From a virus (lineage: Duplodnaviria; Heunggongvirae; Uroviricota; Caudoviricetes), in IMG/VR virus record IMGVR_UViG_2740892236_000004, positions 1-11,680 of that record: a stretch of 11,680 bases of DNA; one strand, 5' to 3'. This document shows, piece after piece, positions 1 to 11,680 of the stretch. Made by a program: the position numbers and the translations under genes. Every line of letters begins with the position of its first letter. Positions within the stretch are counted from its first letter, which is position 1. The notes under the pieces were generated by a model that did not search any database, was not told the DNA's origin, and worked only from the letters and a program-made list of their open reading frames with translations.

Positions 1-947
1 GCTGAACTGATTGATGCCATTCGTGATGGTGTTGAGTGGTACAACAACCGGCCGCACGATGAATTACCGGTGAAGCCGAACGGCAAGCATTACAGCCCGG
101 CGGAGTTCAGAAAAAAACGCCTGGCGGAAGAGGACACGGAAATTGAATGGCTGTCCGATGTTGAACTGCGGGATATGTTCCGGCCGATGGTGGAGCGCCC
201 TGTAAGACGCTGTGAAATACGCTGGCTGAATAATATTTACTACGCGCCCGAGCTGCGTGACGAGCATGGCCGTAAGGTACTTATCAGCTATGACATTCAT
301 GATGCCGAACGAATTACCGTGCGCCGCCCGGATGGCAGCGTGATTTGCGAGGCGGTATGGGACGGCAATAAACGCGAAGCCTTCCCTGTCNNNNNNNNNN
401 TCGTAAGGTGCTTATCAGCTATGACATTCATGATGCCGAACGAATTACCGTACGTCGCCCGGATGGCAGCGTGATTTGCGAGGCGGTATGGGACGGCAAT
501 AAACGCGAAGCCTTCCCGGTCAGCGCGGAATACCACAAACAGCAGCAGCGCCTTAAAGGCATGCGTAAACGCGCAGAGGAAAAAATCCGTGATGCCGAGG
601 ATGAGGTTGTCAACGTGCTGGAGCACAAGCCGCAGGAGCCCTGGCTGGAAAACATATACCGCCCTGTGGGTAATACGGTGACCGTTCAGCAACCGGTCGC
701 TGACGATGAACCTGATGAAGAATACGAGCGTAATTTCCAGCGGGGATTNNNNNNNNNNATTGTCAACGTGCTGGAGCACAAGCCACAGGAGCCGTGGCTG
801 GAAAATATATACCGCCCTGTGGGTAATACGGTGATCGTTCAGCAACCGGTCGCTGACGATGAACCTGATGAAGAATACGAGCGTAATTTCCAGCGGGGAT
901 TGCAACTGCTCGAAGCGAAATTAAAAGAAAGTGATCCGCTGGCCTGA
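1..947 (+). CDS. A: Mu-type DDE transposase (MuA-like), C-terminal portion. The 5' end lies outside the window. As written, the frame is broken by two N10 scaffold joins (391-400, 749-758) with duplicated flanks.
   Basis: Frame-1 ORF open from base 1 (AELIDAIRDGVEWYNNRPHDELPVKPNGKHYSPAEF...). After each N run the same peptide segment is repeated in a shifted frame. Ends ...LQLLEAKLKESDPLA with TGA at 945-947. It sits directly upstream of a MuB-type ATPase gene, the arrangement typical of transposable phages. No motif-level proof of the DDE core is possible because only the C-terminal part is present. Confidence 0.75.
391..400. other. Scaffold join (10 N). Flanks 271-390 and 402-521 are the same sequence with a few substitutions.
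   Basis: Run of exactly 10 n. Sequence after the gap (tcgtaaggtgcttatcagctatgacattcatgatgccgaacg...) repeats the sequence before it (ccgtaaggtacttatcagctatgacattcatgatgccgaacg...). Confidence 0.97.
749..758. other. Scaffold join (10 N). Flanks 607-748 and 760-901 are near-identical overlaps.
   Basis: Run of exactly 10 n. ttgtcaacgtgctggagcacaagcc...cagcggggatt occurs on both sides with a few mismatches (ccgcag/ccacag, ccctgg/ccgtgg, gaccgtt/gatcgtt). Confidence 0.97.
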
Positions 948-1029
948 AATAAAAAAATAACCCGAGGGGTGACTCAGGTTATTTGAGGTTTCAGTCTCGG
1001 AGAATGCTGTCTCAAGCGAGGTGAATAAT

Positions 1030-1242
1030 ATGACCGATATTAACGATGTAATCAAGACCATTGATGAACTTATTGATGGCGGCGTACTGACGCAGTATGC
1101 CATCGCCAGAGAGGCGGGAATTTCCGACGGCACATTATCGGCTTTCCGTAAGGGAAAATATAAAGGCGATAACGCTGCTGTGGCTGCTTCCCTGCGCTCC
1201 TGGTATGAGAACTGGAATAAACAAAGCGCACTGCCGGAACCG
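1030..1242 (+). other. Redundant copy of the first ~71 codons of gene B, truncated at the N10 join at 1243-1252. An allelic overlap, not an independent gene.
   Basis: Translation MTDINDVIKTIDELIDGGVLTQYAIAREAGISDGTLSAFRKGKYKGDNAAVAASLRSWYENWNKQSALPEP is identical to the N-terminus of the full B ORF at 1371. The DNA differs at a few synonymous sites. Confidence 0.9.
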
Positions 1243-1252
1243 NNNNNNNNNN
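1243..1252. other. Scaffold join (10 N). Flanks about 906-1242 and 1254-1583 overlap (end of A, A-B spacer, start of B) with substitutions and a 7-bp length difference in the spacer.
   Basis: Run of exactly 10 n. The A stop (TGA 945-947 vs 1293-1295) and the B start (ATG 1030 vs 1371) are both present twice. Confidence 0.97.
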
Positions 1253-1370
1253 GCTGCTTGAAGCGAAATTAAAAGAAAATGACCCTCTGGCCTGAAATAA
1301 AAAAATAACCCGAGCGGCGACTCAGGTTATTTGATTAAACAAAGGAACTACACAAACGCGAGGTAATAAT

Positions 1371-2303
1371 ATGACCGATATAAACGATGTAATCAAGACC
1401 ATTGATGAACTTATTGATGGCGGCGTGCTGACGCAGTATGCCATCGCCAGAGAGGCGGGAATTTCCGACGGCACATTATCGGCTTTCCGCAAGGGGAAAT
1501 ATAAAGGCGATAACGCCGCTGTGGCTGCTTCCCTGCGCTCCTGGTATGAGAACTGGAATAAACAAAGCGCACTGCCGGAACCGCCGCAGTTTGTGGAAAC
1601 TCAGACAGTCCAGGAGCTGCGCGCACTGTTTCAGGCGGTTCGCCTGATGGGCTGTATTAACGTTATTGTGGGCGTACCGGGTGTGGGTAAAACGGCCACT
1701 GCCCGTAATTACTGCCAGGAGCAACCAAACACCTGGATGATCACCCTGTCACCCGCGCACTCCAGCGTCACGGAGTGTCTGCTGGAGCTGGCCGATGCGC
1801 TGGGGATTGATTACACCCGCGCGAACAAAGGGGCATTATCCCGCGCCATCCGCCGTCGCCTGATGGGAACGCGTGGACTGGTGATTGTGGATGAGGCGGA
1901 TCATCTTGGTATTGACGGTCTGGAGCAACTCCGGGCAATTCAGGACGCCTCGGGGATCGGGATGGTGCTTATTGGTAACCCGCGCGGATTGTTTAAAGGT
2001 GGACGCCGCGCCTTTGATGATTTATCGCGCCTGTTCAGCCGTCTTGCCCGTACAAAACAACTTCGCAAGGCCAAAAAGGCGGATGTGCTGGCCATTGCCA
2101 TGGCGTGGGGGATCAGTGGTGAGGCCGAGCTGGCCGTCATGCAGGCTATCGCTGAAAAGCCGGGAGCGTTACGCGTTCTGACACATACGCTTAACCAGGC
2201 GTGGCTCACCGCCAGCGGTGAAGGCGCGGCGCTGACAGAAAAACATATTAATGCGGCCTTTAAAGAGGTTTATACCAACCCTGAATTACTCTCACAGGTG
2301 TGA
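1371..2303 (+). CDS. B: Mu B-type DNA transposition / target-DNA activator protein (AAA+ ATPase with N-terminal HTH)
   Basis: 310-aa ORF. ATG 1371 is preceded by GAGGT at a 6-nt spacing. Walker A motif GVPGVGKTA and Walker B-like hhhhDEAD (LVIVDEADHL). Size (Mu B is about 312 aa) and position directly after the transposase gene both fit. Confidence 0.9.
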   Translation: MTDINDVIKTIDELIDGGVLTQYAIAREAGISDGTLSAFRKGKYKGDNAAVAASLRSWYENWNKQSALPEPPQFVETQTVQELRALFQAVRLMGCINVIVGVPGVGKTATARNYCQEQPNTWMITLSPAHSSVTECLLELADALGIDYTRANKGALSRAIRRRLMGTRGLVIVDEADHLGIDGLEQLRAIQDASGIGMVLIGNPRGLFKGGRRAFDDLSRLFSRLARTKQLRKAKKADVLAIAMAWGISGEAELAVMQAIAEKPGALRVLTHTLNQAWLTASGEGAALTEKHINAAFKEVYTNPELLSQV

Positions 2304-2305
2304 TT

Positions 2306-2527
2306 ATGGCGGTATTTAATATTCCTGATATTTACGGACGCTTTTACCTGGTTAATTTCGATAACGTGAAGGTGATTTCACTGGCCGAAAATAAAGAATG
2401 TGGCGATTTACTTTTTGAATTTAATGACCGCACACGAATGGTGATATCTGCCGGACTTGATCGCGAAGGTGCGACAGAAGTTTACAGCGGAATATGCCGT
2501 TCTGTTGGTGCGAAACAAGTCAGCTAA
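2306..2527 (+). CDS. Small early protein (73 aa) at the position occupied by kil in phage Mu; function not established from sequence
   Basis: ATG 2306 follows AGGTG at a 5-nt spacing and lies 2 nt after the B stop (TGA 2301-2303); an in-frame GTG at 2300 is an alternative start. Translation MAVFNIPDIYGRFYLVNFDNVKVISLAENKECGDLLFEFNDRTRMVISAGLDREGATEVYSGICRSVGAKQVS. The kil assignment rests on position and size only. Confidence 0.55.
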   Translation: MAVFNIPDIYGRFYLVNFDNVKVISLAENKECGDLLFEFNDRTRMVISAGLDREGATEVYSGICRSVGAKQVS

Positions 2528-2539
2528 ATGAGGTGTTAT

Positions 2540-2794
2540 ATGAATATGCAATCCTGCGGTAACAAAATGAATTTATTCGACTCCCTGAACAGCGCGCGCC
2601 GTCTGACCGAACTTGCCGGTGCGGTACTGGAACGCAGTAAGCGCTATCCGCAACGTTTTGCACTGAAAACCACGCCGCCGGTAGGCAACGTGCAGGGAAC
2701 CGGTGAAATTGAAATCACCATACAGACCAACGGCCTGCGCCGCCGTGTGAAGGCCACCCGCATCAGCGGCTGCACGGTTTACTGGGAGGTGTGA
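2540..2794 (+). CDS. Hypothetical early protein (about 84 aa)
   Basis: ORF with GAGG 6 nt upstream of ATG 2540 (in-frame ATG 2528 is also possible). Sits in the co-directional early gene string. No recognisable motif. Confidence 0.5.
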   Translation: MNMQSCGNKMNLFDSLNSARRLTELAGAVLERSKRYPQRFALKTTPPVGNVQGTGEIEITIQTNGLRRRVKATRISGCTVYWEV

Positions 2795-2795
2795 G

Positions 2796-3077
2796 GTGAA
2801 AAAAAATCTCATTGCATGGGCGTGGTCGAGTGGTCTTATTGAGTTTGGTTACGTCCTGCCGGAAGGTGCATTGCCGATAGTTGCCGGAAAGCCTGCCACG
2901 GTACGGCATGTGATTGAGGTTATGGCGCGTCATGGACGTGATGAACAGGAGCAGTTACTGGTTCCGGGGATACCGGAAGCGGTGACGGAGGAAGAAGCCT
3001 TTAATGCCATGATTCGGTTCTGCCGTGAGGTTAGACGCCGGGTCAGTTATCCAAACAGAACGAGGACCAGAGGATGA
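2796..3077 (+). CDS. Hypothetical early protein (93 aa)
   Basis: GTG 2796 is preceded by GGAGG (2785-2789). It lies 1 nt after the upstream TGA (2792-2794) and its own TGA (3075-3077) overlaps the next ATG (3074), indicating translational coupling. Confidence 0.55.
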   Translation: MKKNLIAWAWSSGLIEFGYVLPEGALPIVAGKPATVRHVIEVMARHGRDEQEQLLVPGIPEAVTEEEAFNAMIRFCREVRRRVSYPNRTRTRG

Positions 3078-3346
3078 GTAAAGTCGTACGCATTATTTTC
3101 GAATACAAGGAAGATGTTATCTGCAAAAACTCTGATGGCAGCACGCACAGAGGGGTAAGTCTGGATATACGTTCAACCGGAATAAAGAAGAAAGATAATG
3201 GACCCGCCATGATTTTTGGGGTGGTTATGCTGGCAGAAAGCAGAAACTTCGCAGAGTTTGTGGCAATGAAAGCCAGTGCATTCATGAAAGACAGAGGCAT
3301 GGCTTCCGGGGTTATTAACGGTAATGAATTTAATCAACAGGGGTAA
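3074..3346 (+). CDS. Hypothetical small protein, paralog 1 of a tandem pair (N-terminus MSKVVRIIFEY...)
   Basis: ATG 3074 with GAGGA upstream. 90 aa. Lower-GC segment. N-terminus and internal blocks resemble the next ORF. Confidence 0.55.
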   Translation: MSKVVRIIFEYKEDVICKNSDGSTHRGVSLDIRSTGIKKKDNGPAMIFGVVMLAESRNFAEFVAMKASAFMKDRGMASGVINGNEFNQQG

Positions 3347-3350
3347 TTCC

Positions 3351-3644
3351 ATGAGCAAAGTACGCGTTATTTTTGAATTTAATCATGTTTCGCATGACGA
3401 AAAGTTGGCAGGCAATGACTGTGTTGAAGTGCATGAAAAGATTGGAGTGGATGTGAAAACAGAACGTGATACGGATAACAGGCCGACGTCACTCTGTGAC
3501 GTTTATGCAAGTATTCTCCAGTATCACAGTCCTGCAATTATTCAGTTTCTCTCAGCGGAATTTCAGGCATCTGCACAGTCTTTTGGAGCGGATGCCATCA
3601 TTAAACGCCACCGCGTGCATAAAGCATCAGGCACACTGCAATAA
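3351..3644 (+). CDS. Hypothetical small protein, paralog 2 of a tandem pair (N-terminus MSKVRVIFEF...)
   Basis: ATG 3351 with GGGG 7-8 nt upstream, 4 nt after the preceding TAA. The ORF track's longer 3324 start is in the same frame but overlaps the previous gene. Shared blocks with the upstream ORF: MSKV-R-IFE, D-NGP/D-NRP, AEF-A--AS-F. Confidence 0.55.
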   Translation: MSKVRVIFEFNHVSHDEKLAGNDCVEVHEKIGVDVKTERDTDNRPTSLCDVYASILQYHSPAIIQFLSAEFQASAQSFGADAIIKRHRVHKASGTLQ

Positions 3645-3655
3645 GGAAAAACAAA

Positions 3656-4186
3656 ATGGCTAAACGCGTTACAAAATTAAAGGCCGCAGCCGAGGCGGCA
3701 CCGCAGACCCGGGAAGAAGTCAGCCGTGATATCCGCACCCTGGGAGATATTCAGCGAGAGGCGCTGCGCCTGGAAACGGCGATGAATGACGAAGTGGCAG
3801 AAATCACCGCCCGTTATACGCCGCAGATTGAAAATCTTAAAAAGCAAATCAAAGTGCTTTTTAAAGGGATTCAGGACTGGTGCAAAACCAACCGTGATGA
3901 GCTGACGAACGGCGGCAAAACCAAAACAGCCAATCTGACCACCGGAACGGTGTCATGGCGGCTGGGAACGCCATCATGCAGCGTCAGCCGTGATGTGGAA
4001 GGTGTGATTGAAATGCTGCGCCGTATGGGGCTTGAGCGTTTCATCCGCACGAAAGAGGAAGTGAACAAGGAAGCCGTCCTGGCGGAGCCGGATGCTGTGA
4101 AAGGCATTGCCGGTATCAAGGTGAATAAAGGCGCTGAAAGTTTTTATGTCGAGCCTTTTGAACAGGACGCCGGACTGAATAAATAA
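3656..4186 (+). CDS. gam: Gam-like host-nuclease inhibitor (Mu Gam family, DNA-end-binding)
   Basis: 176 aa (Mu Gam is about 174 aa). Blocks such as LRLETAMNDEVAEITARY, ANRDELTNGGKTKTANLTTGTVSWR, GLERFIRTKEEVNKEAVLAEPDAVKGIAGI and FYVEPFEQ match my recollection of Mu Gam closely. AAGGA lies 8 nt upstream of ATG 3656. Confidence 0.88.
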   Translation: MAKRVTKLKAAAEAAPQTREEVSRDIRTLGDIQREALRLETAMNDEVAEITARYTPQIENLKKQIKVLFKGIQDWCKTNRDELTNGGKTKTANLTTGTVSWRLGTPSCSVSRDVEGVIEMLRRMGLERFIRTKEEVNKEAVLAEPDAVKGIAGIKVNKGAESFYVEPFEQDAGLNK

Positions 4187-4331
4187 CACCGCATTAATCA
4201 ATTAAATATCACTTCATTTTAATTATGGCGCTCGCGTCAGGGGACTGCTTGCGCCTGAAAACAGAAAATAAGGGTTAAGAAATATGAAATACGTTTATAT
4301 CGTCATTAATAATGTGGTGGGGAAATAAATC

Positions 4332-4865
4332 ATGATTGATGCAAAAGTGCTTGAAGGGGTTAAAAACTGGCTGTGTATTTATGGCCGCCTGACCTGCGGT
4401 GTACTGGCTGAAAAAATGAATATGCCGCCATCCTCCATGGTTTATTTTCTGCGTGATGCGGTTGATGCAGGCGTGCTGACGGAATGTAACGGTTTTTATG
4501 ATATTCCGCGCCCCCGCCCGGTGCAGCCGGTTCGTCGCAAATGCAGCCAGGAATCTGCGGCTGATGATGTTCAGTGGTGCGGCTTCAGAAAATCCCTGCC
4601 ATGGATTGAGGGGCATGATATTCCGTCGATGGCGTGGGAATTTGCTCAGGGCGTTCTGACCTGTGAAACCGTTTATGTGGTGGCTGAAGTTGATGAGCAG
4701 GCCATGAAAGAAGGCGTGCCCCAGTTTGTGATGGCGTATATCGACATACGCCTGGGCGTCATTATCTGCGGTTTAAGCGGCTGGAATATCACTGAACATG
4801 TTCTGCGCTACCTGATTGTTGACCGGACAGCAGCGCCTGCCGGGATATCTGCGGAGGTGGCGTAA
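4332..4865 (+). CDS. Hypothetical protein (177 aa), first gene of a six-gene coupled module. The N-terminal ~50 aa look like a winged-helix fold, but this is weak.
   Basis: ATG 4332 after a 145-bp AT-rich intergenic region. Stop TAA 4863-4865 overlaps the next ATG (4865). Confidence 0.55.
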   Translation: MIDAKVLEGVKNWLCIYGRLTCGVLAEKMNMPPSSMVYFLRDAVDAGVLTECNGFYDIPRPRPVQPVRRKCSQESAADDVQWCGFRKSLPWIEGHDIPSMAWEFAQGVLTCETVYVVAEVDEQAMKEGVPQFVMAYIDIRLGVIICGLSGWNITEHVLRYLIVDRTAAPAGISAEVA

Positions 4866-5380
4866 TGTTCTTTAAAACATCAAACCCTTCCGCGCTGGCT
4901 GCGTGGCAAAAATACCAGCAGGACTGCCAGAAAGTTAAGGATGAGGCAAAACGCCTTGAGGCCGTGCTGAATGTTGCGTGCCGGTCGGTATTTGTATCCG
5001 GTATCAGTGGATTTTGCTTTAAGGGACTGCGTTTTACGGAGGACAAATATCCTTTTCATCGCGACTTATGGCGAAAACCGACTGCGTCGAATGGCTGGAG
5101 CTGCACACCGCGCACATCACGTATCCCTAAAACCCTGCGTGTTGCCTCTGATGAACTGAACAGTCTGTGGCGTGAATATTCGCCCGTCACGTATGCCAGA
5201 ACCGATGCGCTGTTGTTCTGGCTGGGTATTGATTTCTCGGCAATCCTGTTTGGCCCTGTGAAGTGGTTCTGCGTTGACGATGTGATTTATCTTCAGTGCG
5301 AAGATGATTCCGCAAAACGGAAAATGACCGAAATTCTGTCTGATGAGTTTTATGCTGCCGAAAAGCGAGTCAGGGGGTGA
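4865..5380 (+). CDS. Hypothetical protein (171 aa)
   Basis: ATG 4865 overlaps the upstream stop (TAATG). No motif recognised. Confidence 0.55.
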   Translation: MFFKTSNPSALAAWQKYQQDCQKVKDEAKRLEAVLNVACRSVFVSGISGFCFKGLRFTEDKYPFHRDLWRKPTASNGWSCTPRTSRIPKTLRVASDELNSLWREYSPVTYARTDALLFWLGIDFSAILFGPVKWFCVDDVIYLQCEDDSAKRKMTEILSDEFYAAEKRVRG

Positions 5381-5383
5381 TGT

Positions 5384-5935
5384 ATGATGATTTTACAACA
5401 CATGGGGCGAAAAGGTCGTACACCCGCTCATGTCCGCGCGTGGACACCTGAAGAAGATGCGCTACTGATTGCGCTTTATTCATCCACCCCGGTTAAGGAT
5501 ATTGCTGCCAGAATAAAAAGAACTGTCTGGGCTGTATATAACCGGACTGGTGTATTGCGCAGTTCATACCCGGAGTTACTGAAATATAAACACCCAAGAT
5601 TTACACCTGATGAAGATAAGTTTATTCGAAACAATGCCAGAACAATGACCTGCCAGCAAATGGGAGAATATCTCGGACGTAATAAAGATTCTGTCAGATG
5701 TCGGGCAGGAATGATTGGTGCTGGATTAACAAAGTGCGGAGAGTTACGCCCCGGCACGCGCATATCTGATGATGATGTACGTCTTATACGTGCGCTGCGT
5801 GATTCCGATTACCCACGCCGTCTGTCATTCCGGGAAATTGGCGAAAAGTTTGGAATATCTGAACATTCTGCTCACGCAGTTTATTACCGTCGCCGGACTG
5901 CCGAGGACGCTGTATTACGGGAGTTAACGCCATGA
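5384..5935 (+). CDS. Putative DNA-binding protein with three tandem HTH-like repeats (Myb/SANT-like or sigma-70 region-4/LuxR-like)
   Basis: 183 aa, with GGGGG 6 nt upstream of ATG 5384. Three internally similar ~40-aa segments: WTPEEDALLIALYSSTPVKDIAARIKRTVWAVYNRTGVL / FTPDEDKFIRNNARTMTCQQMGEYLGRNKDSVRCRAGMIGAGL / ISDDDVRLIRALRDSDYPRRLSFREIGEKFGISEHSAHAVYYRR. Confidence 0.6.
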   Translation: MMILQHMGRKGRTPAHVRAWTPEEDALLIALYSSTPVKDIAARIKRTVWAVYNRTGVLRSSYPELLKYKHPRFTPDEDKFIRNNARTMTCQQMGEYLGRNKDSVRCRAGMIGAGLTKCGELRPGTRISDDDVRLIRALRDSDYPRRLSFREIGEKFGISEHSAHAVYYRRRTAEDAVLRELTP

Positions 5936-6261
5936 TAACGACCTTATTTGTTGAATCAGATGAACCTCTTGTGTGTGCCGCCGGAATGCCGCTCTGTGGC
6001 GGAACGCTGACCGGTGTTTATTTCGGGGATTTACGCGGTTATCCCTGGCATTCACTGAATGATGCTTTCCCACCTGATATGGAGGCTGTCGTGCTGATTG
6101 TTCAGTATGGTCACCGTCAGGAGCTGCGCATCGGCCATATGGGGTATGAAGGCTTTTTTGTTGATGAAGAAACCGGAGCCTGCCTTGAAGATGAAGACGG
6201 ACAGGTGACGCACTGGTGTCATATTTCGGCTTTACCGGAATTACGGGAGGTGAATGCGTGA
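5932..6261 (+). CDS. Hypothetical protein (109 aa)
   Basis: ATG 5932 overlaps the upstream TGA (ATGA). Its stop TGA 6259-6261 overlaps the next start (GTGA). Confidence 0.5.
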   Translation: MITTLFVESDEPLVCAAGMPLCGGTLTGVYFGDLRGYPWHSLNDAFPPDMEAVVLIVQYGHRQELRIGHMGYEGFFVDEETGACLEDEDGQVTHWCHISALPELREVNA

Positions 6262-6608
6262 GAAGTTATATTGATAATGAAAAGCTGGAGACAATAAGCG
6301 ACTGTCTTAGCTTGCTGGCAAAAATCAAAGAAACTATTGAAGAGATTAAATTTCAGCTTGAATACGCACCATGTGGCGATGATGCATGGCGTAATGCTGC
6401 CAGAAAAGCACTGGCTGTCTTTCAGAAACAACGCCGGGCTGTTGAATACCGCCTTGCTGTATTGCGCCAGGAGGAAAAGGAAAGAAATATAAGACGTCAT
6501 GAACGCGTTAATGATTTCCTTGTTCGTGAATTAAAAGAGCGCGTGCCGGAGTCGGTATTTTTTGAATGTGAGGCTATAGCCCGTAGCAAAGCACTGGAAA
6601 CAGATTAA
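6258..6608 (+). CDS. Hypothetical protein (about 116 aa), predicted largely helical and charged
   Basis: GTG 6258 with GGGAGG (6245-6250) 7 nt upstream, coupled to the upstream stop. The ORF track's ATG 6216 would overlap the previous gene by 46 nt and lacks an RBS. Confidence 0.5.
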   Translation: MRSYIDNEKLETISDCLSLLAKIKETIEEIKFQLEYAPCGDDAWRNAARKALAVFQKQRRAVEYRLAVLRQEEKERNIRRHERVNDFLVRELKERVPESVFFECEAIARSKALETD

Positions 6609-6623
6609 GCAGGCAGGTGAATA

Positions 6624-6932
6624 ATGAGTATTGAATTAAGATCGTCTTATGAATATCGCAAAATCCTTATCGCCGGAGGGATGAAACCGGAAGATGCTGA
6701 AAAATTCGTTTCTTTTATGGATAAAGAATGTGACAAGCGGGATATGCCAGAAATTATTATGGATGACATGATTCTGGATTCAGCCGTAGCGTTAAGTCCG
6801 TTATGGATTGTGCATACCCTTGCGGAAATAGCTAAAAGAAGTGACAAGCAGGCGGCTGTCGCCGCCCTGCGATTACTGGCTGAATTAAGTTGTTCAGTCA
6901 ATCCCAATACGTTCTTTGACGAACCTGGTTAA
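6624..6932 (+). CDS. Hypothetical protein (102 aa). Its 3' end overlaps the 3' end of the reverse-strand gene by about 39 nt.
   Basis: ATG 6624 with AGGTGA 4-5 nt upstream. AT-rich. Stop TAA 6930-6932. Confidence 0.55.
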   Translation: MSIELRSSYEYRKILIAGGMKPEDAEKFVSFMDKECDKRDMPEIIMDDMILDSAVALSPLWIVHTLAEIAKRSDKQAAVAALRLLAELSCSVNPNTFFDEPG

Positions 6933-7611
6933 CATTGATTTGGTAACTTCTTTAATTAGATCAAATGGTGCGTCTGTAAACTCCTTTTTGATTCTTTCAA
7001 GGATTGGTTTTTTTCTCAGGGCGTTAGCTAAATCANNNNNNNNNNTAGTCAATCCCAATACGTTCTTTGACGAACCTGGTTAACATTGATTTGGTAACTT
7101 CTTTGATTAGATCAAATGGCGCGTCTGTAAACTCCTTTTTGATTCTTTCAAGGATTGGTTTTTTTCTCAGGGCGTTAGCTAAATCATGCCCCTGCTGGGT
7201 AAGCATAATGGGCGTGTTTCTGAAACCAACGCCCAGAGAATGGAAAAAGAAACCAATATATTTGGGTGTTTCTGACTGCATATCACCATTAACAATTGAG
7301 CCATTATCAGCGAGAAGCATAAGATGAAAAACTTTTTTATCCTNNNNNNNNNNAGTAAGCATAATGGGCGTGTTTCTGAAACCAACGCCCAGAGAATGAA
7401 AAAAGAAACCAATATATTTTGGTGTTTCTGACCGCATATCACCATTAACAATTGAGCCATTATCAGCGAGAAGCATAAGATGAAAAACTTTTTTATCCTT
7501 TTCCTCTCCTTCTGCCTCAGCCATGCCCAGATCCTGTAGTGTAAGGAAAGGTGTTTCAGCATCCTGAAAAGTTGTGAGAATACTTAATACTTCATCGTAA
7601 TCTATTTTCAT
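6894..7611 (-). CDS. Hypothetical protein on the reverse strand (about 136 aa once the duplicated scaffold overlaps are collapsed). The only reverse-strand gene in the window; candidate accessory (moron) gene.
   Basis: Reverse-strand ATG (complement of 7609-7611) with AAAGG 7-8 nt upstream. Translation MKIDYDEVLSILTTFQDAETPFLTLQDLGMAEAEGEEKDKKVFHLMLLADNGSIVNGDMQSETPKYIGFFFHSLGVGFRNTPIMLTQQGHDLANALRKKPILERIKKEFTDAPFDLIKEVTKSMLTRFVKERIGID, stop TGA as complement of 6894-6896. Two N10 joins (7036-7045, 7344-7353) with duplicated flanks inflate the apparent length. Short hand counts put GC near 40% here versus about 56% in B. Confidence 0.6.
7036..7045. other. Scaffold join (10 N). Flanks 6896-7035 and 7047-7186 are near-identical overlaps.
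   Basis: Run of exactly 10 n. gtcaatcccaatacgttctttgacgaacctggttaacattgatttggtaacttctt... occurs on both sides with 2 substitutions seen. Confidence 0.97.
7344..7353. other. Scaffold join (10 N). Flanks 7199-7343 and 7355-7499 are near-identical overlaps.
   Basis: Run of exactly 10 n. gtaagcataatgggcgtgtttctgaaaccaacgcccagagaatg... occurs on both sides with a few substitutions. Confidence 0.97.
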
Positions 7612-7675
7612 ATCGATACCTTTAGTTTTATCCGGGCGGCGTTGCCATGCCGCCTGTTGTTACGGAGACACGATA

Positions 7676-8188
7676 ATGAATCGCGCTTCCCTGATTACCT
7701 TAATACATGTCGCAAAACGCGATCTACAGCTTGACCATGAGACCTACACATCCGTACTACTGGCAGCCACCGGCAAACCCAGTTGCCGGGATATGTCACC
7801 GGATGAGTTATCCCGCGTGCTGGATGTTTTCAAAAAACGCGGTTTTAAAGTGCGTCAGAAGCCGGTTAACCGGGCCTTAAAACCGGGTACGGTGACCGCC
7901 AAAATTCGCGCCATCTGGAAGGTGATGCACCGGCAGGGCTTTATCTCTGATGGCGGGGAAACAGCCCTTAACCGCTGGGTGAAATCGCAGACGGCCGCTC
8001 AGAACGGCGGCGAAGGTGTGGCTAACTGGCAGTGGCTGGAACAACACCCCGCGCTGGCCTCTGATGTGCTGGAGCGTCTCAAACGCTGGCACCGCCGCAA
8101 GATGCTGGATGTGCTGGGGATGTCAGCGCGTACAGTGATGAGTTATGAGCGCGTTTGCAGGCTGTATGAAGAATCCTCCCCCTTTTAA
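7676..8188 (+). CDS. gemA: GemA-like phage regulatory protein (Mu gene 16 family)
   Basis: 170 aa with GGAGA 7 nt upstream of ATG 7676. N-terminus MNRASLITLIHVAKRDLQLDHETYTSVLLAATGKPSCRDMSPDELSRVLDVFKKRGF fits my recollection of the GemA family pattern (SLIaqIHiAK..LgLDDdTYr..L...TGk.ScrDM...L..VLD.FKr.GF). Position just upstream of the Mor/C-type gene matches Mu. Confidence 0.7.
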   Translation: MNRASLITLIHVAKRDLQLDHETYTSVLLAATGKPSCRDMSPDELSRVLDVFKKRGFKVRQKPVNRALKPGTVTAKIRAIWKVMHRQGFISDGGETALNRWVKSQTAAQNGGEGVANWQWLEQHPALASDVLERLKRWHRRKMLDVLGMSARTVMSYERVCRLYEESSPF

Positions 8189-8192
8189 CCCC

Positions 8193-8224
8193 AAATCCCG
8201 CCACAGCGCGGGATTTTTATTTTA
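8193..8224 (+). terminator. Rho-independent terminator immediately after gemA
   Basis: Perfect 9-bp stem aaatcccgc (8193-8201) / gcgggattt (8207-8215), 5-nt loop cacag, then a T-rich tract ttttatttta. Starts 5 nt after the gemA stop. Confidence 0.8.
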
Positions 8225-8258
8225 AACTTGCCCTGTGTAATGATGACCGGAGGCGGGT

Positions 8259-8681
8259 ATGGCTGAAACACAGATGAGCATGTTTGGTGACAGCGAACAG
8301 CTGCACGCGCTGATTGACCGTCTGGATGATATTCCTGATGATGAGCTGAAAAAGAACTGGCCCGGCACGCTGCGGGACCTGGTTGATGTGATCAGTGCTG
8401 AACTGCACCGTCAGGGGATTGAACCTGCTCAGGCGGGAATGCTTGCCCGTAAGGTTGCAGCCGCACAGGCCGGGTACATGGGCGGGCGTGGTTATTATCT
8501 CCCGGTCGGTGAATCCCTTTTCACCGAACTGCGCAATAATGAAATTTTTTCCCGCTGGAGCCAGGGCGAAAAAATTGAAACCCTGCGCCGCCACTACCAG
8601 ATGTCAGAGACGCAGATTTACTCCGTTATCCGTAACCAGCGCCGCCTGCATCAGGAACGCACGCAGCCCCGGCTTTTCTGA
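8259..8681 (+). CDS. Mor/C-family transcriptional activator (Mu middle/late gene activator family). Which of the two Mu roles it plays is not resolvable from sequence.
   Basis: 140 aa with GGAGG 5 nt upstream of ATG 8259. The C-terminal HTH-like segment ETLRRHYQMSETQIYSVIRNQRRLHQER parallels the Mor/C C-terminal DNA-binding region. The acidic N-terminus and overall size fit. It lies between the terminator and the lysis genes. Confidence 0.72.
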   Translation: MAETQMSMFGDSEQLHALIDRLDDIPDDELKKNWPGTLRDLVDVISAELHRQGIEPAQAGMLARKVAAAQAGYMGGRGYYLPVGESLFTELRNNEIFSRWSQGEKIETLRRHYQMSETQIYSVIRNQRRLHQERTQPRLF

Positions 8682-8752
8682 TATTCCGCAAATCCTGCCC
8701 ACTTTTTCCCACGGTTACGCTGACTCAGAGAACACCATGAGACAGCGTAACA

Positions 8753-9253
8753 ATGCCAAAACTCCCCGCACCCCTGCGTAAAAAGCTGATTGCCCTTGTT
8801 CTGGCCGGAGCCGGGACGTTCACCATTGCCACGCACTACACCGGCTACTGGGAAGGGAAAGAAAACACCACGTACATTGATCCCACCGGCACCCCCACCA
8901 TCTGTTACGGCCATACCGGCCCGGATGTGAAACCGGGGATGACAAAAACTGATGAAGAATGTCTGGAGCTGCTGGAAAAGGACATGAAATGGGCCTTTGC
9001 GGCTATCGATCGTCATGTTCAGGTGCCGCTTACCCGTGGTCAGACGGTGGCGCTGGCCTCCTGGATTTTCTGGGCCGGTGAAACGAACTTTCGCAACTCC
9101 ACGCTCCTGCGCCTTATCAATGCCGGGCAGATGCCCGGGTCCTGTAAGCAGTATATCCGCTGGATTTATTCAAAGGGGGTAAAACTCCCCGGTCTTGAGG
9201 CCCGCCGTTCGGCGGATGAATGGTTGTGTCGCTACGATTTGCCGAAAGTCTGA
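8753..9253 (+). CDS. lys: Endolysin, T4-lysozyme-like (GH24) muramidase with N-terminal signal-anchor-release (SAR) domain
   Basis: 166 aa. Catalytic E-x8-D-x5-T arrangement inside YWEGKENTTYIDPTGTPTICYGHT. The N-terminus MPKLPAPLRKK is followed by a weakly hydrophobic Gly/Ala-rich segment LIALVLAGAGTFTIATHY, typical of SAR endolysins. Confidence 0.88.
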   Translation: MPKLPAPLRKKLIALVLAGAGTFTIATHYTGYWEGKENTTYIDPTGTPTICYGHTGPDVKPGMTKTDEECLELLEKDMKWAFAAIDRHVQVPLTRGQTVALASWIFWAGETNFRNSTLLRLINAGQMPGSCKQYIRWIYSKGVKLPGLEARRSADEWLCRYDLPKV

Positions 9254-9365
9254 ACCGCTTCTGGCGACCACTCATGATTGCGCTGTTGTGTGTCGTTGTG
9301 GTGCTCCGGGGTGTGCTGTGGCTGCGGTGAATAATCCCTTACCGGCCCTGATTGCCGGAGGGTGT

Positions 9366-9716
9366 ATGGCGGCGCTGGGGGTGATGAGCGTGCTGGCTGC
9401 CGTGGTATGGGGAATGCACCAGAAGACACAGCGTCTTGAAGACAATAATCATGTGCTTGTGCGTGAACGGGACGAAGCCCGTCTGGTGCTGGCAAACCAG
9501 CAACGTACCCTGCAACTCATTTCACAAATCAGTAAGGCGGCCACGAATGAAAAACAGCAGAACATGCAGCACAGCGAGGAACAGCAGAGCATTGTCCGCC
9601 GGTCGCTGGCAACGGTGCCTGCGGCCTCTGTTCCTGTGCCTGATGATGTGGCTGACCGGGTGCGGCGGGCCGTCTGTGAAATACGTGCCGGTGAAGCCGG
9701 TGCCGATCCCCGCTGA
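9366..9716 (+). CDS. Putative i-spanin (Rz-like): N-terminal transmembrane helix plus periplasmic coiled-coil region
   Basis: ATG 9366 with GGAGGG 5 nt upstream. TMD MAALGVMSVLAAVVWGM, followed by a charged helical region. In-frame GTG 9327 is an alternative start; the upstream extension to 9195 has no RBS and overlaps lys. Confidence 0.62.
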   Translation: MAALGVMSVLAAVVWGMHQKTQRLEDNNHVLVRERDEARLVLANQQRTLQLISQISKAATNEKQQNMQHSEEQQSIVRRSLATVPAASVPVPDDVADRVRRAVCEIRAGEAGADPR

Positions 9717-9918
9717 ATGGCTGGCTGACTGTCTGGTTCCTCCTGTGCCGCAGCCGTTCACGTTTGGCGCATCGGTCACTTACAACCTGCAACTGCTGGC
9801 GGTGATTAAGAACTGCAACGTGGACAAGGCCAGCATCCGCCGTCTGGAGGTACAGCGACAGCATGAATTTACTGATATGGCCGGAACGACTGCTGTTCCG
9901 GCAGGAAAGACGAAGTAA
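9547..9918 (+). CDS. Putative o-spanin (Rz1-like outer-membrane lipoprotein), in the +1 frame, starting inside the i-spanin gene and extending beyond it (overlapped architecture)
   Basis: Lipobox LTGC with Cys codon at 9661-9663, preceded by the hydrophobic stretch LFLCLMMWL. The mature part is proline-rich (PVKPVPIP...PPVPQP). The start codon is uncertain: ATG 9547 gives an unusually long leader, a TTG at 9592 is possible, and ATG 9643 would be too short for a signal peptide. Confidence 0.55.
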   Translation: MKNSRTCSTARNSRALSAGRWQRCLRPLFLCLMMWLTGCGGPSVKYVPVKPVPIPAEWLADCLVPPVPQPFTFGASVTYNLQLLAVIKNCNVDKASIRRLEVQRQHEFTDMAGTTAVPAGKTK

Positions 9919-9928
9919 GGAAAAAGGT

Positions 9929-10156
9929 ATGGATGATTCAGATTGTGCTCAGGCAGTCGTGGAGCGGGCAACAGAACGCGCCCTTTGTGACCGGCTGACA
10001 CGTAAGTGCCGGGTGGAGGAGACTCCGGGCAGGCGTGTATGCGCAGACTGCGGGGGTGACATTCCGGCCGCCCGTCTGGTTGCCGTGCCGGATGCCATCC
10101 GTTGTGTGAACTGCCAGAGCATCATGGAGGCCGGTCATGTGGGTCAGCATCGTTAA
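9929..10156 (+). CDS. TraR/DksA-family C4-type zinc-finger protein
   Basis: About 75 aa. AAGGAAAAAGG lies upstream of ATG 9929. Four-Cys motif CADCGGDIPAARLVAVPDAIRCVNCQ with CxxC-x17-CxxC spacing, typical of phage TraR-like proteins. Confidence 0.75.
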   Translation: MDDSDCAQAVVERATERALCDRLTRKCRVEETPGRRVCADCGGDIPAARLVAVPDAIRCVNCQSIMEAGHVGQHR

Positions 10157-10448
10157 AGATTATGTCGTGCCGATCCTGTCGGCAACAGCCACGGCCGGGG
10201 GGATCTTTATGGCGCTGATGCGCAAAACCTTTGTCCCCCGCGAGGCCTTTGAAAAACTCTCCGACCGGGTTGAGCGGGTGGAGAGCCGGATTTCCGGCCT
10301 GCCCACGCAGCAGGAGGTGAACAGACTCAATATCGAAATCACCACCCTGCGCGGTGAGCTTAAGGCCACCAATGCCACCCTGAAATCCGTCTCCCACCAG
10401 AACGAACTGCTGCTGGAGCAGGCTGTAAGGAAAAAACACAATGAGTGA
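10137..10448 (+). CDS. Small membrane protein (single N-terminal TMD plus coiled coil); candidate lysis-associated protein
   Basis: 103 aa with GGAGG 6 nt upstream of ATG 10137; overlaps the TraR-like gene's 3' end. Hydrophobic segment VVPILSATATAGGIFMALM, then a charged heptad-like region. From memory, Mu-like phages have a DUF2730-type protein at this position. Confidence 0.58.
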   Translation: MWVSIVKDYVVPILSATATAGGIFMALMRKTFVPREAFEKLSDRVERVESRISGLPTQQEVNRLNIEITTLRGELKATNATLKSVSHQNELLLEQAVRKKHNE

Positions 10449-10731
10449 TTTCATTACTGAAGATCAGCGTCTTGTCATTCTGCGGTCGCTGGCGGATTAC
10501 AACGGCGAACTGGGCGAATCCGTGCTTCAGGACTGCCTGGATGATTACGGCCACCGCGTGTCCCGCGACACCGTTCACACCCACATTGCCTGGCTTGCTG
10601 AGCAGGGACTGGTGCGTAAGCGCACGCTTGTTAACGGTTATTTCATCGCTGAACTGACCGGCCGGGGTCAGGATGTGGCGGAAGGCCGCGCCACCGTTCC
10701 GGGTGTGAAGAAACCACGCGCAAGGGGGTAA
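10441..10731 (+). CDS. Hypothetical protein (96 aa), possibly winged-helix-like, directly upstream of the small terminase gene
   Basis: ATG 10441 overlaps the upstream stop (ATGAGTGA). The stop TAA 10729-10731 lies 2 nt before the next ATG. The fold assignment is a guess from helix-turn-strand patterning. Confidence 0.55.
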   Translation: MSDFITEDQRLVILRSLADYNGELGESVLQDCLDDYGHRVSRDTVHTHIAWLAEQGLVRKRTLVNGYFIAELTGRGQDVAEGRATVPGVKKPRARG

Positions 10732-10733
10732 CG

Positions 10734-11315
10734 ATGGATAAGCCGACGCGTGGCCGTGTACGCAAGGTGGATTTGCTCCCCGACAGCATCCGTAAGCCGC
10801 TGCTGGAAATGCTGCGTGAAAAACGCCTGACGCAGGTCCAGATCCGCGAGGAAATCAACCGTCTGATCCGTGAGGCAGGCCTGCCGGAAGAGCAGCAGCT
10901 TTCACCGGCGGCCATCAGCCGGGAAGCCTCCCGTAATGAGCTGATTGCCCGTAATCTGCGTGATTTACGCGAGCAGACAAAAGCCATGATGGCCGAACTG
11001 GGGGATAAGCCGACCGGTGAAACCACGGCACTGATTCTGGAGATGTCCCGTGCCCTGATGTACCGCCGTCTGCGTGCCGCCACCGAATCCCTGAACAGCG
11101 ACAGCGATGTGGATATGCGCCTCATCAAGGACATCCTCCTGTCGGCACAGCGTGCAGAAAGTGCCGCCGAGCGCAGTATTAAGCGTGAAAAAGAAATCCG
11201 GGCCGCATTTGCTGAAGAGATGGCGAACGCCGTCACCGACGAGTTGCGCGGCGTGGATGGCATGAGCGAGCAGATAGAATTCCGTATCAGGCAGATGCTG
11301 CTTGGTAAGGCGTAG
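10734..11315 (+). CDS. Putative terminase small subunit / DNA-packaging DNA-binding protein (Mu gp27-like)
   Basis: 193 aa with AGGGGG 5 nt upstream of ATG 10734. The N-terminal block RGRVRKVDLLPDSIRKPLLEMLREKRLTQVQIREEINRLIREAGLP matches the conserved N-terminal HTH region I recall for Mu gp27-family proteins. Position is upstream of the presumed large terminase. Confidence 0.62.
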   Translation: MDKPTRGRVRKVDLLPDSIRKPLLEMLREKRLTQVQIREEINRLIREAGLPEEQQLSPAAISREASRNELIARNLRDLREQTKAMMAELGDKPTGETTALILEMSRALMYRRLRAATESLNSDSDVDMRLIKDILLSAQRAESAAERSIKREKEIRAAFAEEMANAVTDELRGVDGMSEQIEFRIRQMLLGKA

Positions 11316-11325
11316 GAGGTGAATC

Positions 11326-11574
11326 GTGGTAACAGATAACCGCTCACTGATGAGTAGTGCTCATCAGAAGGCATTCAGTCTTGCAACACAGTTACCTCCT
11401 GAAACCATAAAAGCGTGTCGTGAGTTGACTGAACTCAGCATTGCCGGGGAAATATCCCTGGAACAACTGCATTCGCTGCTGGCAGAGGCTGTCACTGATG
11501 AGTTGAGTGGCGTGGACGTGATGACTGAAGAGCTTGAGTTCCGAATCAAAAGCATTCTGACAGGTAAAGCCTGA
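11326..11574 (+). CDS. Small ORF (82 aa) whose C-terminal ~30 aa are a diverged paralog of the small-terminase C-terminal tail
   Basis: GTG 11326 with AGGAGG 6 nt upstream. The C-terminus AEAVTDELSGVDVMTEELEFRIKSILTGKA aligns with the small-terminase tail ANAVTDELRGVDGMSEQIEFRIRQMLLGKA. The stop TGA 11572-11574 overlaps the next ATG. Confidence 0.5.
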   Translation: MVTDNRSLMSSAHQKAFSLATQLPPETIKACRELTELSIAGEISLEQLHSLLAEAVTDELSGVDVMTEELEFRIKSILTGKA

Positions 11575-11680
11575 TGAACAAAGCCAAAGAAACGTCTCCT
11601 TCACTGATACAAATGACGCCTCCCCGCAAAATTGATCTGTCCGGTGAAAAAGCCCTGCTGGGCGTGGATGTGCCGGACAG
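11574..11680 (+). CDS. 5' end of the next gene, probably the terminase large subunit by position; runs off the window
   Basis: ATG 11574-11576 overlaps the upstream TGA. Open frame to the window end (MNKAKETSPSLIQMTPPRKIDLSGEKALLGVDVPD...). Identity inferred only from gene order. Confidence 0.35.
   Translation, partial: MNKAKETSPSLIQMTPPRKIDLSGEKALLGVDVPD

Follow-up and report, generated by a model that had tools for sequence, protein, structure and literature searches.

The stretch of DNA analysed here (the window), 11,680 nucleotides at positions 1 to 11,680 of the IMG/VR virus record IMGVR_UViG_2740892236_000004, spans the early-to-middle region of a Mu-like prophage of E. coli. Within it, a minus-strand gene upstream of gemA codes for a protein of the DUF2513/phrog_585 family and converges on p102, a small plus-strand gene of the phrog_1988 family. 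Comparison with related elements indicates that these two genes form a conserved, relocatable convergent two-gene module in Mu-like phages of Enterobacterales. The convergent pairing of phrog_585 with phrog_1988 and its relocation are the new observations. By analogy with the Tab/anti-Tab pair of the Pseudomonas phage JBD26, we tentatively read the module as a prophage-expressed accessory factor with a partner in the lytic operon, and we assign this reading a probability of about 0.4. The paired architecture is a testable lead, not a demonstrated system.

Results

A convergent gene pair in Mu-like phages

In E. coli TOE17 (locus L001) the DUF2513 gene is present as an uninterrupted copy, annotated in RefSeq as coding sequence (CDS) 8847-9257 on the minus strand (WP_000687317.1, "DUF2513 domain-containing protein"). 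This CDS shares 39 nt with the plus-strand CDS 8577-8885, which corresponds to p102 at 6624-6932 of the window, and it starts 64 bp from the start of gemA at 9322. Across the extent of the window, all other RefSeq CDSs of TOE17 are on the plus strand. An earlier note, made from the letters of the window, had described this same arrangement: a minus-strand open reading frame (ORF) of about 136 amino acids (aa), a 3' overlap of about 39 nt with the plus-strand gene at 6624-6932, 64 bp between the 5' end of the ORF and gemA, and plus-strand genes everywhere else. The TOE17 annotation confirms each of these points. The note had also called the gene a lone one, and that description did not hold up, since the plus-strand gene at 6624-6932 is its partner in a conserved convergent pair. 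The features concerned are the following.

6624-6932, plus strand: p102, coding for a 102-aa acidic helical protein (phrog_1988, E=1e-38)
6894-6932, both strands: 3' overlap of p102 and the DUF2513 gene, 39 nt
6894-7035, minus strand: the 46 final codons of the DUF2513 gene and its stop codon (6894-6896)
7354-7611, minus strand: codons 1-86 of the DUF2513 gene (start codon 7609-7611), matching the RefSeq CDS
7676-8188, plus strand: gemA, the divergent neighbour of the DUF2513 gene (gp16 family; Pfam GemA, E=2.8e-28; RefSeq "gp16 family protein")

The overlap at 6894-6932 is codon-aligned, with the final 13 codons of both genes (stop included) lying in the same DNA. A 39-nt overlap recurs, at only about 50% sequence identity, in L050, L058, L065, L072 and L110-L112. 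Relatives with 30-54% identity occur in IMG/VR contigs, in a Klebsiella phage and in genomes of Citrobacter, Pantoea, Edwardsiella and Kluyvera. They too are encoded opposite to the early operon of the Mu-like element and are nearly always immediately convergent with a homologue of p102. At least 19 diverged lineages have such a convergent homologue right next to that of the DUF2513 gene, and the 3' ends of the pair either share 18-39 nt or meet to within a few bases.

The pair occupies three positions in these genomes: upstream of gemA, in the interval between gemA and mor (L073, L079, L100, L102), and in the baseplate module between gp45-like and gp46-like genes (L074, L076, L077), where the two genes abut and do not overlap. 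At all three positions p102 is co-oriented with the surrounding operon and the DUF2513 gene is opposed to it. The same relative orientation at three positions, with abutting or overlapping 3' ends throughout, is hard to explain unless the genes move together. Pairwise identities of the p102 and DUF2513 proteins are also correlated (r=0.73 over 15 lineages). Searches for relatives of the p102 protein itself in Pfam and PDB found none.

Occurrence of either gene without the other

Among Mu-like elements, the one clear case of a DUF2513 gene without p102 is L006/L048, in which IS1 (an insertion sequence, IS) has replaced p102. In L061 no p102 was detected on a contig that stops about 300 bp past the DUF2513 gene. 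The opposite situation, p102 without the DUF2513 gene, is common in Mu-like prophages.

More distant relatives of the DUF2513 protein (29-37% identity) stand alone in Vibrio, Alcanivorax, Hydrogenovibrio, Microbulbifer and other genera. In Vibrio qingdaonensis (L097 2287-7790), two DUF2513 paralogues belong to an array of small same-strand genes, separated by repeats with attC-like cores (TAACAAA ... GGCGTTAG). Microbulbifer harenosus (L109 3006-7407) has a comparable array of small same-strand genes in which the repeats, recorded by position only, are similarly spaced. Both arrays look like the cassette arrays of chromosomal integrons. Other distant relatives are found beside P2-like baseplate genes, beside AbiV and HNH genes or in variable islands, and a lambdoid Klebsiella phage carries one between its lysis and terminase genes. 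This solitary occurrence on several kinds of mobile element indicates that the DUF2513 protein can function without p102.

The same distribution bears on the idea that the DUF2513 gene is a stand-alone moron, with a self-contained host-fitness or exclusion function and no functional tie to p102, and that the pairing reflects common descent in a compact genome. The solitary relatives in integron cassettes, in the lambdoid phage, beside P2-like baseplate genes and in variable islands all agree with this idea, as does the persistence of p102 alone in many prophages, among them one (L008, described below) that kept p102 and lost the DUF2513 gene. The constant geometry of the pair at three genomic positions and the co-divergence of the two proteins argue against it, and we regard it as distinctly unlikely.

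An accessory slot upstream of gemA

Of 5426 complete E. coli genomes, 231 have a related gemA-mor region and 6 have the DUF2513 gene. To describe the alternatives to it, we sorted 35 IMG/VR loci, anchored on gemA, by what they contain upstream of this gene.

Type A, 8 loci: DUF2513 gene (including one truncated allele and one locus with IS1 replacing p102)
Type B, 8 loci: another reverse-strand gene (79 aa, phrog_32893) that converges on a forward gene of 95 aa
Type C, 16 loci: p102, followed by forward membrane-protein genes
Type D, 2 loci: membrane-protein gene alone
Type E, 1 locus (L008): p102 alone

The truncated allele (L004 3589-3936) codes for 115 aa, and the IS1 copy that stands in place of p102 lies at about 1600-2110 in L006. 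In L008 (3885-4004) an internal deletion of about 365 bp has left about 20 codons at the 3' end of the DUF2513 gene, its 5' leader with a hairpin described below, and p102. An E. coli genome beyond the 35 loci (L002 1953-2933) has lost the whole pair at an insertion of IS5 (ISKpn26-family). The alternative convergent pair, located at 2442-2949 in L003 and at -578 to -71 relative to gemA in L007, consists of the 95-aa forward gene (phrog_6075) and the 79-aa reverse gene (phrog_32893), whose 3' ends overlap by 20 nt; a similar hairpin precedes gemA. A PADLOC search with these two proteins (p79 and p95) gave no match.

The DUF2513 gene is therefore accessory, and the slot upstream of gemA is variable, with at least five alternative contents. 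As is typical of morons, the gene is absent from close relatives with conserved flanks, both in L008 and where the slot is filled differently. The suggestion in the earlier note that related Mu-like prophages might carry different cargo at this site is thus borne out by another reverse gene, membrane-protein genes, IS elements and the deletion in L008.

A second property of morons, a composition unlike that of the flanking genes, is also found. The GC content of the DUF2513 gene is 0.387, compared to 0.554 for B, 0.556 for gemA and about 0.55 for mor. The earlier note was right about this difference. The two plus-strand genes upstream, p102 (0.424) and p116 (0.433), are low as well, however, which makes a low-GC block of about 1.1 kb. 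We therefore rejected low GC as a mark of the reverse gene alone.

Scaffold gaps and the intact reading frame

The window contains five N10 scaffold gaps.

391-400: N10 gap
749-758: N10 gap
1243-1252: N10 gap
7036-7045: N10 gap
7344-7353: N10 gap
7046-7343, minus strand: scaffold piece between the last two gaps, repeating nucleotides 113-410 of the DUF2513 ORF at 97-98% identity

At four of the five gaps the two flanks carry the same 121-146 bp in duplicate, differing by 3-5 mismatches (96-98% identity); comparison of the flanks at 1243 found no such duplication. The gaps split the C-terminus of A, the N-terminus of B and the DUF2513 gene, and the duplications inflate the length of the window. 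Since two of the gaps (7036-7045 and 7344-7353) fall inside the minus-strand gene, ORFs of 192 and 54 aa appear in the ORF list as artefacts. The piece at 7046-7343 overlaps its two neighbours by 141 bp (3 mismatches) and 146 bp (4 mismatches); it is an assembly artefact that adds no sequence. Collapsing the overlaps yields a single minus-strand ORF of 136 aa (MKIDYDEV...KERIGID), in agreement with the intact copy in TOE17. Two of the six E. coli genomes that have the gene contain two prophage copies of it, and the slightly divergent, mis-scaffolded duplicates in the window probably arose because two differing prophage copies were assembled together.

Because the window copy is cut by two gaps with duplicated flanks and its apparent ORF is inflated, one could suspect a non-coding interval, with the ORF being a chance antisense frame or a product of the assembly. 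The data leave virtually no room for this suspicion. Intact copies exist in six complete genomes, full-length homologues in 254 protein clusters reach down to about 25% identity, the structure model described below is of high confidence, and the interval carries no plus-strand gene. The 254 clusters, the phrog_585 match and a model with a predicted local distance difference test score (pLDDT) of 97 establish that the ORF is a genuine gene. The chance-frame reading, which the earlier note had named in advance as one of the outcomes that would dispose of its proposal, is refuted by these findings.

Protein family and predicted fold

The earlier note did not recognise the protein. Profile and structure-based searches now assign it to the DUF2513/phrog_585 family with a winged-helix fold. 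A profile search of 1.84 billion representative proteins (cut-off E<1e-3) returned the 254 clusters, nearly all of them stand-alone proteins of 130-145 aa. Residues 1-134 match positions 1-126 of the 128-position phrog_585 profile (E=7.1e-18), which makes the window protein a full-length member of this family. The match to Pfam DUF2513 (PF10711) covers positions 1-96 of 100 with 23.6 bits (E=6.6e-5), under the gathering threshold of 29.6 bits, and a close homologue (P0001) scores 22.2 bits. PF10711 is matched by 92 of 121 aligned relatives (best E=9e-15); membership of the window protein is thus transitive.

AlphaFold (AF2), supplied with the 121-sequence alignment, predicted a winged helix followed by three C-terminal helices with a pLDDT of 97, as opposed to 69 with an earlier alignment of three sequences. 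The predicted fold is that of the PadR/MarR regulators, and on the model the protein shares it with DNA binders of the PadR/MarR/TubR type, from which it differs in that only about 73 residues align, at 13-19% identity, and in that the DUF2513 family is acidic. The isoelectric point (pI) of the protein is 5.2, close to the family median of 5.3, and 78% of the members are below 6. The winged-helix part contains 6 lysine or arginine residues and 14 aspartate or glutamate residues, and the family alignment reveals no conserved basic residue in the putative recognition helix. Given this acidity and the missing basic positions, DNA binding is not assured even though the fold is clear. In summary, the gene product is a 15.5-kDa acidic winged-helix member of the DUF2513/phrog_585 family.

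Searches for better characterised relatives returned little. Sequence searches of PDB with single-family and deep profiles found no relative of the DUF2513 protein, the PadR/MarR Pfam profiles gave no match at E<=1, and the NCBIfam search returned only noise. Foldseek against PDB retrieved only weak MarR-like matches (E>0.02), and a fold search of BFVD retrieved one uncharacterised viral protein (E=7e-4). In the literature library searched, DUF2513 came up once, incidentally, and PF10711 not at all. The small prophage winged-helix proteins grouped as DUF2513, PHROG 585 or YjcQ-like are thus a known family with no function assigned.

The gemA leader and a possible regulatory role

The 64-bp spacer between the DUF2513 gene and gemA contains a hairpin, directly upstream of the gemA ribosome-binding site.

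7635-7661, plus strand: GC-rich hairpin, in whose 7-bp stem 7635-7641 pairs with 7648-7654, and the T-rich run TGTTGTT behind it, separated from the gemA start codon by 14 nt

Its stem is conserved in six lineages, with one compensatory pair. The hairpin accompanies a reversed upstream gene (types A and B) or the deletion derivative (type E), recurs in Klebsiella and Citrobacter-type lineages, and is missing from types C and D, in which gemA directly follows a forward gene. From its sequence the element reads as a plus-strand intrinsic terminator, and the corresponding hairpin is called a terminator in L050. On the minus strand it would fall in the 5' leader of the DUF2513 mRNA. Its candidate roles are attenuation of read-through into gemA-mor or stabilisation of the 5' end of the reverse mRNA. 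A search for operators found just a 9-nt imperfect inverted repeat, located inside gemA, and Rfam gave nothing at the locus. The earlier note had placed the promoter of the reverse gene in the gemA leader. What we found in this leader is the terminator-like hairpin and no sigma-70 consensus; a promoter of the DUF2513 gene, if there is any, must sit within the first codons of gemA.

These observations bear on the main rival to the Tab-like reading, which sees in the DUF2513 protein a dimeric winged-helix regulator that binds the shared gemA control region or its own promoter, tuning expression of gemA and of Mor, the activator of the middle genes, and hence the maintenance of lysogeny or the timing of the switch from early to middle expression. 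A fold of the PadR/MarR/TubR type would suit such a protein, the intergenic region contains a conserved structured element, and most Mu-like loci have the gene divergent from gemA with 30-70 bp between the start codons, or place it between gemA and mor. This role is weakened by the acidity of the family, by the excess of acidic over basic residues in the winged-helix part of the window protein and by a putative recognition helix devoid of conserved basic residues. It is also weakened by genomic context: the pair resides in baseplate modules distant from gemA as well, and the relatives found as single integron cassettes or between lambdoid lysis and terminase genes have no gemA that they could regulate. 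Furthermore, most close relatives of the prophage do not have the DUF2513 gene, and besides the hairpin no operator-like inverted repeat lies between the genes. We consider a regulatory role at gemA-mor unlikely. A specific tie of the DUF2513 gene to gemA was rejected on the evidence of the baseplate modules and the integron cassettes.

Other features of the window

Besides the genes discussed above, the window comprises the 3' part of A, B, gam, several small early genes, gemA, mor, a lysozyme gene and more genes. An 82-aa ORF at 11326-11574 (plus strand) follows a gp27-family gene at 10734-11315 (plus strand); AVTDELSGVDVMTEELEFRIKSILTGKA near the end of the former closely echoes AVTDELRGVDGMSEQIEFRIRQMLLGKA at the C-terminus of the latter. 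This likeness suggests a partial duplication. Beyond the extent of the window, RefSeq annotates a "tRNA-OTHER" at 17791-17870 (minus strand) of L001, between the head-morphogenesis and virion-morphogenesis genes of the TOE17 prophage.

Discussion

The orientation of the two genes provides the starting point for a functional proposal. Since p102 is always co-oriented with the lytic operon, it can do without a separate promoter. The DUF2513 gene is always backwards and would therefore have to be transcribed independently, plausibly from the prophage. A classical reverse-oriented moron is bor of phage lambda, a single gene whose promoter is defined and whose product is a lipoprotein. Both bor and the DUF2513 gene run against the lytic operon that contains them, differ in composition from their surroundings and occur in some relatives but not in others. 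Unlike bor, it appears to be one half of a two-gene unit, and the consensus scan found neither a promoter nor a terminator for it.

The closest architecture is that of Tab/anti-Tab (gp31/gp30) from the Pseudomonas Mu-like transposable phage JBD26, to our knowledge the only characterised defence/antidote pair in Mu-like phages. Tab is encoded by a minus-strand gene that has a promoter to itself and is active in the prophage; anti-tab is a plus-strand gene just before tab in the late operon, and its product neutralises Tab during the lytic cycle of the phage itself (PMC10884400). The target of Tab is the tape measure protein, and its phenotype is established (PMC10884400). In both cases a small minus-strand gene is wedged into a Mu-like lytic operon, convergent with a small plus-strand gene, and the 3' ends overlap (47 nt in JBD26, 39 nt for DUF2513/p102). 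The distance to the next plus-strand gene is 30 bp in JBD26 and 64 bp for the DUF2513 gene. Paired co-occurrence is common to both systems, and it is not strict here in either direction, as the DUF2513 gene and p102 also occur singly. The two systems differ in location, with the JBD26 pair lying between terminase genes and DUF2513/p102 upstream of gemA (in relatives after gemA or in the baseplate module), and in size, with 83 aa for Tab and 136 aa for the DUF2513 protein. The earlier note had proposed a lysogen-expressed function for the reverse gene; this proposal is supported in part, by the variable slot in which the gene is inserted and by its likeness in layout to tab, an experimentally characterised defence gene of a prophage.

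In analogy to Tab, the DUF2513 protein would be made from the prophage and act in trans, with incoming or related phages as its most likely targets. The p102 protein would be made once the lytic operon of the phage itself fires, and would neutralise the DUF2513 protein. Lytic read-through across the antisense strand may further silence the DUF2513 gene. A defence activity of the DUF2513 protein, with p102 as the antidote, is speculative. The distribution of the genes fits this model in that the DUF2513 gene of Mu-like elements keeps its partner, p102 is often found alone, and lone DUF2513 genes reside on elements that would not be targeted by their own product.

Several observations weigh against the Tab-like reading. 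We detected no homology to Tab or anti-Tab (hhalign probabilities of 1.3% and 0.6%), and with no similarity in sequence or profile the analogy is one of architecture. No PADLOC model matches the DUF2513 protein or p102. A window-wide scan found no sigma-70 consensus promoter and no terminator for the minus-strand gene, and the weak promoter-like sites upstream of its relatives in L073 and L077 occur at the frequency expected by chance. Since both proteins are acidic (pI 4.7 for p102, 5.2 for the DUF2513 protein), formation of a complex is not obviously favoured. The occurrence of both genes alone means that the pairing is not obligate. Finally, the conserved adjacency to gemA and mor could instead reflect a regulatory role.

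A more far-reaching version of the proposal holds that the pair is an undescribed defence and self-immunity system of enterobacterial Mu-like prophages, in which the winged-helix protein produced by lysogens would block related phages on their way in, p102 would disarm its partner at induction and serve in counter-defence where it occurs alone, and the DUF2513 half would circulate on its own as an integron cassette in marine gammaproteobacteria. We put this version forward with considerable doubt.

Both DUF2513/phrog_585 and phrog_1988 recur among phages as families to which no function is assigned, and they now constitute a defined, testable two-gene module in E. coli, a host with easy genetics. 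If the analogy to Tab/anti-Tab is false, the locus still illustrates clearly how the accessory content of a slot just upstream of gemA varies. If it is true, the module would represent a new system of phage defence or exclusion that brings its own antidote. The analogy would then also explain why p102 is kept alone in many Mu-like prophages, and would give a function to a family that is found in chromosomal integron cassettes.
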